NCBI RefSeq assembly: GCF_003334785.1
Contig: NZ_QOWV01000041.1
Origin: Escherichia coli
GTDB taxonomy: Bacteria > Pseudomonadota > Gammaproteobacteria > Enterobacterales > Enterobacteriaceae
Strand: one strand, 5' to 3'
DNA length: 5,793 nucleotides
The notes below the pieces were generated by a model. That model was given only the letters and a program-made list of their open reading frames with translations. It was not told where the DNA came from and did not search any database. This document shows, in pieces, positions 1 to 5,793 of this stretch. A program made the position numbers and the translations under genes. Position 1 is the stretch's first letter; each line of letters opens with the position of its first letter.

Positions 1-223
<223 letters not shown>

Positions 224-553
224 CTGCAACGTTTTTCCGCCTGAAAGCTGACTGCCTCCTGCTGAGGTGGGAGGCTATGATTCAGTGCGTTTATAGTCTC
301 CGGGGTATGCATGTACCGGAGCATACCATTTCTGGTGGATAACAAGCCGGCACATTCAGACTGCAGTGAAGATGGAGGCACCTGGTTGTGAAGAACGTTT
401 CTGCCCGTGGCTGCTTCGCATCATCAATGGTATTCATACCCGCTCAGAAATGACCGGGTGCTGAAGCCCTCCGTTATCGCGCAGTATAATGACGTATATG
501 ATCTGTGGACGAGTGAGCGGCGTGCCTGATGTACGCCGCTATTACTGTATTTT

Positions 554-589
554 ACCACAGGGCTGGTTTTCTGCTGCCAGCCCTGTGGT
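554..589 (-). terminator. Perfect 13-bp stem / 10-nt loop hairpin just 3' of the minus-strand ORF; putative terminator
   Basis: ACCACAGGGCTGG (554-566), loop TTTTCTGCTG (567-576), CCAGCCCTGTGGT (577-589) is an exact inverted repeat. It lies 10 nt beyond the stop (599-601) of the minus-strand ORF. The flanking sequence is not a clean U-tract on either strand, so terminator function is an inference. Confidence 0.45.
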
Positions 590-598
590 TCTCAGACA

Positions 599-1201
599 TC
601 AACTGTGAGCGGCATCAACCGATGTACGGTATGCCATAAGCACGTACTGATCCATCAGATTTGTCAGTGGTTCACTCTGACCCTGACGTGCAATGATCCA
701 TTGCTCCAGATCTTTTTCTGATTTGTGTTTCAGGTTTTTCGTCCAGTCGTCAAGGCTGTTTCCGGTCATTAAGTCAAGCCAGCAGAGCCAGACCAGTTTG
801 AGACGTAACTCCGTGCCGCCAAACTGACGGAAGAGGCTGATCAGTTTGTTTGCCAGAGAATGTTGCTTCAGGCGCTCACATTCAGACAGCAGGATCCCTT
901 CCAGCATCGGATGATGAACCAGCAGGTGTTCGCTGGTGCATAAATTCACCACCAGATCATCATCCAGGGACGGGGAGCTCCGTTTGTCCGGACCATAAAT
1001 CAGCCGGTGCAGACTCTGGGGAACGATGGCAATCTCCGGTTTTTCGCCATTGAATGACACCCACCCGGGCGTCAGATTATGGAAATAGTAGATATTCGGA
1101 TGACACACGCCCCATGATACGGCGTGCCGGGTGAAGCCGGTCAGCCATTTCTGGTAGTTTTCATGGAGCAGCTCGTAACGGGTCTGATACTGTTGTTTCA
1201 T
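599..1201 (-). CDS. Hypothetical protein (~200 aa), no family recognised; downstream of and co-oriented with alpA
   Basis: Long ORF on the minus strand (six-frame track 599..1216). Likely start is ATG at 1201 with GAGGA 8 nt upstream; alternative starts are ATG 1207 and GTG 1216. It sits 87 bp after the alpA stop and is followed by the hairpin. No motif I can place. Confidence 0.65.
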   Translation of the reverse strand: MKQQYQTRYELLHENYQKWLTGFTRHAVSWGVCHPNIYYFHNLTPGWVSFNGEKPEIAIVPQSLHRLIYGPDKRSSPSLDDDLVVNLCTSEHLLVHHPMLEGILLSECERLKQHSLANKLISLFRQFGGTELRLKLVWLCWLDLMTGNSLDDWTKNLKHKSEKDLEQWIIARQGQSEPLTNLMDQYVLMAYRTSVDAAHS

Positions 1202-1294
1202 TTTCATATTCCTCACGGGGGATAACAGGCAGCAGAGCGCCGCCGGCAGGCCGGAGATTGCGTCTGCTGTGGGCGAAGGGTTAGTGGTTAAAAA

Positions 1295-1507
1295 TTACGG
1301 ACGGGACTGTGCAATACGCGCCTGCAGCCAGGCTTCCACTTCACTTTTCAGCCAGCGGGAGCTGCGCCCCATTTTGATGGGCGCAGGAAAGCCCCCATCT
1401 TTGATGAGTTTGTCAAACCACTTATCGGTTAGGCCGGTCAGTTGAGTGATAAACGCCATGTCGACCATCTGGTCATCCATCAGCGAAACTGGGGTATCCC
1501 GCTTCAT
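1295..1507 (-). CDS. alpA: AlpA-family phage/island transcriptional regulator (MerR-like HTH, excisionase-type)
   Basis: Translation MKRDTPVSLMDDQMVDMAFITQLTGLTDKWFDKLIKDGGFPAPIKMGRSSRWLKSEVEAWLQARIAQSRP carries the AlpA signature (HTH followed by GFP.P.K.G....W...E...W). Size is 70 aa from ATG 1507, with AGGG 5 nt upstream; the track ORF begins at TTG 1510. Start is uncertain; internal Mets at 1480 and 1468 are possible. Confidence 0.85.
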   Translation of the reverse strand: MKRDTPVSLMDDQMVDMAFITQLTGLTDKWFDKLIKDGGFPAPIKMGRSSRWLKSEVEAWLQARIAQSRP

Positions 1508-1922
1508 CAATGCCCTGAAAGCCCGAATCGACGCTTACCAGAAACGTAAGCATCGGGAAGGTAAACGCGTGCATCCCACAACCCTGCATTACGTCTGGGC
1601 CCGGGAGTTTGGGGAGTGCAAAGGTAAAAAACACTATCACCTGATGCTGCTGGTTAACCGGGATACCTGGTGTCGTGCCGGTGATTACCGTGCTCCGGGA
1701 TCACTGGCCGGGATGATTAAACAGGCGTGGTGCAGTGCCCTGGGAGTGGATGTCGGGTGCCATGCCACGCTGGTGCATTTTCCGGCCTGGCCGGCGGTGT
1801 GGCTGGAACGCGATGATGACACTGGCTTTCAGCAGGTGCTGGAACGTGCTGACTATCTGGCGAAGGAACATACCAAAGCTCACTGCACCGGTGAGCGCAA
1901 TTTTGGCTGTAGCCGGAGTTGA
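1446..1922 (+). pseudogene. YagK/YfjJ-family (inovirus Gp2-like, HUH-motif) replication-initiator-like protein, 5'-truncated remnant
   Basis: The ORF contains ..VSRFINALKARIDAYQKRKHREGKRVHPTTLHYVWAREFGE..KKHYHLMLLVN..LVHFP..ADYLAKEHTK..FGCSRS, matching my recollection of this family including the HYH (HUH) motif and the C-terminal FGCS end. The N-terminal ~90 residues of the family are missing. An in-frame TGA at 1443-1445 precedes the ORF, and the expected upstream space is occupied by alpA on the opposite strand. Confidence 0.6.
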
Positions 1923-2978: not shown

Positions 2979-3181
2979 GCGGTTCAGTCGCGGAAATCAG
3001 TTGCAGAGCTGTAATGATATCTCCGGGAGTGCTGCGTTGGTAGGGGCATCCCGGGATAGAGAAATTTTAGCACTTTGCCCTGAATGATTGTAGACGTCCC
3101 GAGTACTCGTACCGGTCTGAGTTATTACAGTTAGATATTCACTTTTTCTCCCGCATACTTCACATCTGTCAACGACGGATG

Positions 3182-3208
3182 AAAAGTGGTTCTTCCGCAA
3201 CCTGGGTG
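3182..3208 (+). repeat. Left terminal inverted repeat of the ISL3-family element
   Basis: AAAAGTGGTTCTTCCGCAACCTGGGTG at 3182-3208 matches the reverse complement of 4889-4915 (AAAAGTGGCTCTTCCGCAACCTGGGTG) at 26 of 27 positions. Confidence 0.75.
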
Positions 3209-4888: not shown

Positions 4889-4915
4889 CACCCAGGTTGC
4901 GGAAGAGCCACTTTT
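4889..4915 (-). repeat. Right terminal inverted repeat of the ISL3-family element
   Basis: CACCCAGGTTGCGGAAGAGCCACTTTT at 4889-4915; its reverse complement matches the left repeat. It begins 8 nt after the transposase stop (4879-4881). Confidence 0.75.
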
Positions 4916-4924
4916 GCACTGTTC

Positions 4925-5253
4925 GTGACAGTATGGCCTTTATGTACTCACTTTGTTACCGGTAGCTGGATCATCACTACCGTGCCGCAAATGGTGGTGA
5001 ACAGCATCAATTGTGGAATGAATGTTGCCGAAGCGACCAATGCGCCTCGTTTCCACCATCAGTGGTTGCCGGACGAGCTGCGTGTTGAAAAGGGTTTAGT
5101 CCGGATACGCTCAAGCTGCTGGAAGCAAAAGGTCAGAAAGTGGCGCTGAATGAGGCGATGGGCAGCACGCAAAGCATTATGGTTGGGTCGGATGGTGAGT
5201 TGTACGGCGCATCCGACTCGCGCTTGGTGGATGATTTAACGGCGGGGTATTAA
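4925..5253 (+). pseudogene. ggt: gamma-glutamyltranspeptidase 3' remnant, 5'-truncated at the IS and carrying a -1 frameshift
   Basis: Translation ..VTGSWIITTVPQMVVNSINCGMNVAEATNAPRFHHQWLPDELRVEKG, then after a frame change PDTLKLLEAKGQKVALNEAMGSTQSIMVGSDGELYGASDSRLVDDLTAGY* (stop 5251-5253), matches the GGT C-terminus as I recall it from E. coli. One T is missing from the T-run at 5095-5097. Relative to the remembered sequence there is also a probable 12-nt in-frame deletion (GSPGGSRII read as GSWII). The 5' boundary is approximate. Confidence 0.8.
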
Positions 5254-5258
5254 TTGAC

Positions 5259-5285
5259 ATCCCCCGGCGCAATGTGCCGGGGGAT
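5259..5285. terminator. GC-rich hairpin between convergent ggt and phosphotriesterase-family genes; probable bidirectional intrinsic terminator
   Basis: ATCCCCCGGC (5259-5268), loop GCAATGT, GCCGGGGGAT (5276-5285): a perfect 10-bp stem. It is followed on the plus strand by AATGGTTTTATG and lies between stop codons at 5251-5253 (+) and 5293-5295 (-). Confidence 0.6.
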
Positions 5286-5292
5286 AATGGTT

Positions 5293-5715
5293 TTATGCGG
5301 TCAATAATCGTCCGGGATTATCGATACAGAGTTTTTTGAGGATCGTTTTATCGACGCCGCGCTCCGCCAGATAGGCCAGAAAAACATCTGGAACAAATCC
5401 CCAGCCATTACCGCCATTTTTAGCCCACATTTGTTTAAGGAAGACATCGTGGCTGAGAACAAGCTGATCGGCGTATCCCAACTCAATGAGATGAGCGACG
5501 GCATCGGCAGTCTCCTGCACCCCTGGCGCTATTCCCTCTTTCGGGAAGGTAATGTCTAGGCCAATCATGTCGAATTCCAGCCAGACACCTTTATCAAGCA
5601 TTTTCCGCTGATACGCCACGTCTTTTCCTGACGGATCCGAGTGTGCGAGAGAGACTTTATTTGGCGAGACGCCCATTTCACCTAACACAATGTCGAGTAC
5701 TTCGTAAGCGACTCG
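5293..5715 (-). pseudogene. Phosphotriesterase-family (PTE/Php-like amidohydrolase) gene, C-terminal ~140 codons only; frame closed upstream by an in-frame stop
   Basis: Minus-strand translation ..RVAYEVLDIVLGEMGVSPNKVSLAHSD..LVLSHDVFLKQMWAKNGGNGWGFVPDVFLAYLAERGVDKTILKKLCIDNPGRLLTA* aligns to the C-terminal half of E. coli Php-type proteins (..SMDIT..KANGGYGY..ENP..). An in-frame TGA at 5716-5718 ends the frame upstream, and no PTE-like continuation is seen in any frame of 5719-5793. The track ORF starts at GTG 5688. Confidence 0.7.
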
Positions 5716-5793
5716 TCAGAACCGTATTGATATTTACTGAGAGCTCAGATCAACTTTCCAGGGCAACAGATCGCGTACCCGGTTTGCCGGCCA

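Follow-up and report, generated by a model that had tools for sequence, protein, structure and literature searches.

What is a perfect hairpin doing directly behind the stop codon of a conserved E. coli gene when no run of uridines follows it? The question is raised by a stem-loop, here called HP1, at positions 554..589 on the minus strand of the window, by which we mean the whole 5,793-nucleotide stretch of E. coli DNA that was analysed. The first-pass annotation had described a perfect 13-bp stem with a 10-nt loop behind the stop of an ORF of about 200 aa, in the transcript of alpA, and had offered three options for it: an intrinsic terminator, an RNA-stability element, or a REP-like or mobile palindrome. 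The description proved accurate, and of the three options the RNA-stability element is the one that fits best.

An inverted-repeat search recovered the arms ACCACAGGGCTGG (554-566) and CCAGCCCTGTGGT (577-589), which are 13 nt long, 100% complementary and 10 nt apart, with a loop (567-576) that reads CAGCAGAAAA on the sense strand. Nine of the 13 bp are G-C pairs, as in the GC-rich gene-end hairpins of intrinsic terminators. The stem starts at the 10th nucleotide past the TGA (601-599) of the upstream gene, orf200, after a spacer of nine nucleotides (598-590), which places it in the 3′ UTR of the alpA-orf200 transcript. As RNA, the 36-mer folds on either strand, with an energy of -25.6 kcal/mol for the minus strand, which is sense for orf200, and of -28.9 kcal/mol for the plus strand, where a G-U adds a 14th pair. 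Compared with dinucleotide shuffles the fold has a z-score of -5.7 (minus) and about -6.5 (plus), with -5.7 to -6.6 as the overall range, and an equally stable fold was found in none of 200 shuffles. When the whole window was shuffled 300 times with preservation of dinucleotides, the longest perfect stem obtained (loop 3-12) was 11 bp and none was longer, and the next longest real perfect stems of the window are of 10 and 9 bp. HP1 is a real, non-random, single-copy and lineage-specific gene-end stem-loop. Such hairpins are not rare in island DNA, as about 190 kb of related loci contain seven perfect stems of 11-13 bp, mostly without T-runs. In related islands other perfect 11-13 bp hairpins lacking T-runs (L012:1436-1472, L015:1428-1464, L018:578-605 and L019:557-584) sit about 1.5-2.4 kb upstream of the orf200 homologue, so that U-less palindromes recur in this family of islands.

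The gene that HP1 follows, orf200 (599..1216, minus strand), encodes a conserved hypothetical protein of the WP_000813432 type, which is 205 aa long from a GTG or 200 aa from the ATG at 1201; the latter is the start used by homologues and likely the true one. The protein had no match in Pfam, NCBIfam, PHROG or PADLOC, and our literature search found nothing on the HP1 locus or on the orf200 protein accession. The family occurs across Enterobacterales, with orf200 adjoining alpA in every island examined. The protein is rich in Cys and Trp and has an invariant core, HHPMLEG...LVWLCW; its AlphaFold model, with a pLDDT of only 63.5, was too weak for a fold search. Upstream of orf200, at a distance of 78-93 nt and in the same orientation, is an alpA-family gene (1295..1510, minus strand) coding for an excisionase-like HTH protein; the two genes are presumably co-transcribed as one two-gene unit.

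The window is a decaying remnant of an E. coli genomic island. It begins with an IS100 fragment (1..187, plus strand) that comprises the end of istA and the start of istB and cuts short the untranslated region of orf200, and continues with about 410 nt without a conserved ORF, orf200, alpA, a truncated inovirus-Gp2-family gene, two zinc-ribbon genes, an ISL3 element with an internal stop, ggt and php fragments and the end of an IS66-family element. The Gp2-family protein (1446-1922, corresponding to L001:10184-10753) is YagK/YfjJ-like, is 5′-truncated in the window and contains a motif, HYHLML, that is similar to the HUH motif found in rolling-circle Rep nucleases. Inverted repeats of 43 nt (3166-3208 and 4889-4931, 81% complementary) bracket the ISL3-family element, whose transposase is broken by the stop, and the window ends at an IS66-family (ISCro1-like) terminus (5687-5793). 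As a whole the window was contiguous in none of 5426 complete RefSeq E. coli genomes. Relative to strain L73 (L001) it lacks two segments. The first, 1154 bp at 186-187, comprises the remainder of istB, the end of IS100 and about 440 nt more; the second, 1667 bp at 1489-1496, extends from the start and promoter of alpA to include the 5′ part of the Gp2 gene, and its junction shows a microhomology of 8 nt. The first codons and promoter region of alpA are thereby replaced by the deletion junction and, with this promoter region deleted, HP1 may now be largely idle in the genome from which the window comes.

Canonical intrinsic termination, the first of the three options, is not supported. Past HP1 the sense strand reads AAAATACAGT and the plus strand TCTCAGACAT, and the 8 nt directly after the stem contain a single T on the sense strand (AAAATACA) and two on the plus strand (TCTCAGAC). 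No T-run 3′ of HP1 was seen on inspection of either strand, nor does a U-rich tract of 7-9 nt stand immediately 3′ of it on either; the sole T-run in the vicinity, TATTTT at 548-553, is located 5′ of the stem on the plus strand. HP1 shares with canonical terminators a GC-rich hairpin a few nucleotides past a stop codon; in contrast to them, it has no U-tract on either strand, continues as AAAAT on the sense strand and has a loop of 10 nt, and the site was not called by a consensus terminator scan. In vitro, the RNA polymerases tested fail to terminate at U-less hairpins, even in the presence of NusA and NusG (PMC3993855). The only strong terminator-like call in the window is a 12-pair GC-rich hairpin with a 3-nt loop at 5259-5285 (plus strand), which is followed by AATGGTTTTA and sits between the ggt fragment and the convergent php fragment. 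Two related candidates were also rejected. One was a bidirectional terminator shared with a convergent gene, since the YfjI-family gene that faces orf200 in another lineage (L033) has no remnant here and the sequence downstream contains no conserved ORF. The other was a SECIS or read-through signal after the UGA: inspection showed no bulged U and no GGUC-type motif in the loop, and the orf200 homologues stop at the same place.

We propose that HP1 forms a 3′ stem-loop that shields the alpA-orf200 mRNA by blocking 3′-5′ exonucleases, with Rho terminating transcription beyond it, a reading to which we assign a probability of roughly one half. According to this proposal RNA polymerase would not be released at HP1, there being no U-tract, and would proceed into several hundred untranslated nucleotides, where Rho would terminate transcription diffusely. 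PNPase and RNase II would then trim the tail to the base of HP1, a 13-bp stem of -25.6 kcal/mol that should be impassable to them, and the outcome would be a defined, stabilised mRNA 3′ end roughly 45 nt past the orf200 stop. Transcription of the region, the action of Rho farther downstream and the location of the 3′ end at the stem are all inferred.

The proposal draws on the work of Dar and Sorek (2018), who reported that Rho-dependent E. coli transcripts at steady state end just after stable stem-loops, which have the size and energy of terminator hairpins and no U-rich tails, and that PNPase and RNase II shorten the RNA as far as these structures, with a mild, rut-like excess of C over G downstream (PMC6061677). 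HP1 shares with this U-less protective class a stable stem-loop at a gene end without a uridine-rich tail. Like the members of the class it is a GC-rich stem-loop directly after a coding region, and the long untranslated stretch beyond it would be open to Rho; a C-over-G excess follows HP1 too, but a mild and patchy one. It differs from them in that its loop (10 nt) and its perfect 13-bp stem are at the large end of the range, and in that its gene belongs to a horizontally acquired, decaying island. Because position, energy and the missing U-tail match the class described in PMC6061677, as the mild downstream C-over-G excess may also do, a stability element is the option that best fits HP1. 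The REP/BIME stabilisers of mRNA offer a second comparison; like HP1 they are extragenic palindromes able to block 3′-5′ exonucleases, whereas HP1 is single copy, is confined to one island lineage and matches no repeat or Rfam family.

The sequence 3′ of HP1 has properties that would suit this mechanism. The untranslated sequence 3′ of orf200 (188..598, minus strand) contains no conserved ORF, and it is here that Rho would load and terminate transcription; the stretch beyond HP1 without a conserved ORF exceeds 400 nt in the window and reaches about 860 nt in the intact island L032. Long untranslated RNA is a natural substrate of Rho. The C/G ratio of the sense strand is 1.44-1.47 over the first ~100 nt past HP1 compared with 1.02 in the body of the ORF, falls below 1 at 493-473 and rises again at 433-313 (1.2-1.6 at 413-313), so that the excess is mild and patchy. 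Along the sense strand HP1 is followed, after 13 nt, by a second stem-loop, HP2 (516..540, minus strand), with a perfect 8-bp stem (AGCGGCGT/ACGCCGCT) and a 9-nt loop; HP2 is GC-rich and weaker than HP1. A population SNP, G519A, keeps the HP2 pairing (as G.U) on the sense-strand RNA only. The gene-end role of HP1 is further supported, by positional analogy, by the canonical terminators or other hairpins found at the same position in relatives. The points against a protective role are the 10-nt loop, which is larger than usual for terminator-type hairpins, the patchiness of the C-over-G excess, the absence of covariation and the existence of sister islands that have no hairpin, the last two of which also bear on the main rival explanation.

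Two segments containing HP1, of 52 nt and 106 nt, occur in 1891 of the 5426 complete E. coli genomes, at a median of 1 and a maximum of 2 places per genome and always between the same island flanks. A scan of metagenome contigs for the exact arms returned 30 contigs, of which 28 were the HP1 locus unchanged, one was the HP1 locus with two substitutions in the loop and one was unrelated (L069, considered below). The stem was unchanged in every copy inspected, so there is no covariation; the copies from E. coli genomes constitute an unbiased sample in this respect, and those from metagenomes were preselected for exact arms. The only common polymorphism near HP1 is C591A, two nucleotides beyond the stem, which divides the E. 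coli population roughly 57:43, with ST131, for example, carrying the A. With only about 1.2 variable sites expected in the 26 nt of the arms, the diversity of the island is too low to show selection.

The main rival explanation is that HP1 is a selectively neutral palindrome in a mutational hot spot between the stop codon and an AAAATAC anchor, its perfect 13-bp repeat being recent, e.g. the product of template switching that perfected a quasi-palindrome, any effect on the RNA being incidental, and its uniformity reflecting only the youth of the island lineage. We regard this as possible, if doubtful. It is favoured by the population diversity, in which purifying selection on the stem leaves no trace, and by the comparison of island lineages. 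The sister islands L029-L031 and L038 are about 80% identical in DNA and align on both flanks of HP1 (TGATGyC before, AAAATAC after), yet hold 22 nt between these anchors compared with 41 nt in the window, and no significant hairpin was found right after their orf200 stop (z about 0.2-0.4). HP1 is therefore dispensable for the operon. In L037, the closest relative by ORF that has a different downstream region, the orf200 DNA is 98.6% identical and the switch to unrelated sequence occurs exactly at the stop codon; its own segment, 66 nt long, has a 10-bp GC hairpin 8 nt past the stop, also without a U-tract. The segment is thus wholly different from one lineage to the next while the flanks align, and the islands that lack HP1 encode near-identical proteins. 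The decay of the island points in the same direction (the IS100, ISL3 and IS66 insertions, the ggt and php fragments, the deleted alpA promoter).

Other observations speak against neutrality. Among homologues of about 60% identity in other genera, eleven carry GGGAGT...ACTCCC followed by TTTTT 10-90 nt past the stop; this canonical intrinsic terminator is seen in L003, L005, L009, L011, L013, L014, L016 and L024, from several genera, and its interior is an AT-rich palindrome, TTAATTAATATAATTAA. These terminators in distant homologues, together with the hairpin of L037, indicate that hairpins of unrelated sequence recur at the end of orf200, though not universally. The pairwise alignments are moreover ambiguous and too short to demonstrate an origin by template switching. 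So stable a stem in a transcribed 3′ UTR would in any case block exonucleases, and this rival therefore concerns the origin of HP1 more than its mechanism.

An unlikely reading is that HP1 acts as a weak or factor-assisted intrinsic terminator, the stem, perhaps with pausing induced by NusA/NusG, releasing a fraction of the polymerases; on the plus strand it would stop transcripts that run antisense into orf200. The great stability of the stem at a gene end and the canonical terminators that distant homologues hold at the same position are compatible with this, and Dar and Sorek mention possible transition states between intrinsic and Rho-dependent termination (PMC6061677). It is opposed by the evidence that disposed of the canonical form: the one or two T residues in the 8 nt after the stem, the silence of the terminator scan, a loop above the usual length and the failure of U-less hairpins to terminate in vitro even with both Nus factors (PMC3993855).

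It is highly improbable that HP1 serves at the DNA level, whether as an AlpA operator, as a nick site or origin hairpin for the HUH-like Gp2 protein, or as a recombination site of the island. Perfect 13-bp inverted repeats do resemble recombinase or operator sites, and the island encodes both a DNA-binding protein of the AlpA type and a Gp2-family protein in which an HYH motif is present. A cis-acting site would be expected to be conserved along with one of these proteins, and HP1 is not: the palindrome is wholly missing from L029-L031 and L038, whose Gp2 and AlpA share 98% and 91% identity with their counterparts from the island that has the hairpin. HP1 is therefore not a conserved binding, nicking or recombination site, and we rejected the AlpA operator and the Gp2 origin on this ground. 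The only other half-site-like match (2038-2050, with 2 mismatches) is within chance, and 13-bp arms with a 10-bp spacer fit no known site class that was tested.

The last of the three original options, a REP-like, MITE-like or otherwise mobile palindrome, was rejected and retains next to no credibility. Further copies, which the first-pass annotation had suggested looking for, were found in no other context among the 5426 E. coli genomes, in phage or viral collections or on plasmids. REP and BIME elements have many copies in different intergenic contexts; HP1 has its one copy, at most two, in a constant context in all 1891 genomes that carry it, and 29 of the 30 metagenome matches are the same locus. 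The plasmid matches are the same island, and the phage and viral collections contain no copies, so that a phage or viral origin was rejected as well. Nor does HP1 look like a MITE or an IS derivative, which would show terminal inverted repeats with a target-site duplication and copies elsewhere: the flanks TGTCTGAGA and AAAATACAG share no direct repeat. Searched in full and on both strands, the window matched no Rfam 15 covariance model at E <= 1.

The single observation in favour of mobility comes from L069 (JGI Ga0209636_10254297), a 1575-bp environmental contig of an uncultured organism. At L069:1257-1290 the identical 13-nt arms of HP1 form part of a perfect 17+17 palindrome and are flanked, as in HP1, by A and AAAAT; the palindrome lies 27 nt past the stop of a gene for a TRAP transporter solute-binding protein that is unrelated to orf200. 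We found no record of this TRAP protein itself; its nearest relative is only 55% identical, and the 21-kb locus of that relative contains no related palindrome. By a rough estimate, one exact-arm coincidence is about what chance would yield for a GC-rich gene-end hairpin in 241 million records (0.1-1, counting the arms alone). The shared A and AAAAT flanks make the match slightly odd, and a real relation as opposed to chance is a low-probability lead. It would take a great deal to persuade us from L069 that the palindrome is a small transferable gene-end module and not a local accident; if it were, stem-loops would be copied between genomes or be made repeatedly by a sequence-specific process.

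Our preferred reading, that HP1 is a protective 3′ stem-loop, has mainly local consequences. The class of U-less gene-end stem-loops has already been described in E. coli and HP1 is an ordinary example of it, of little significance beyond annotation. For annotation, HP1 is a clean case of a gene-end hairpin that terminator predictors miss, the U-tract being absent, and its position probably gives the 3′ limit of the alpA-orf200 transcript in an island that roughly one in three sequenced E. coli possess. For the family, the turnover at the end of orf200, where a canonical terminator, different U-less hairpins or no hairpin at all may be found, is in line with the known idea that 3′-end signals are easily exchanged.
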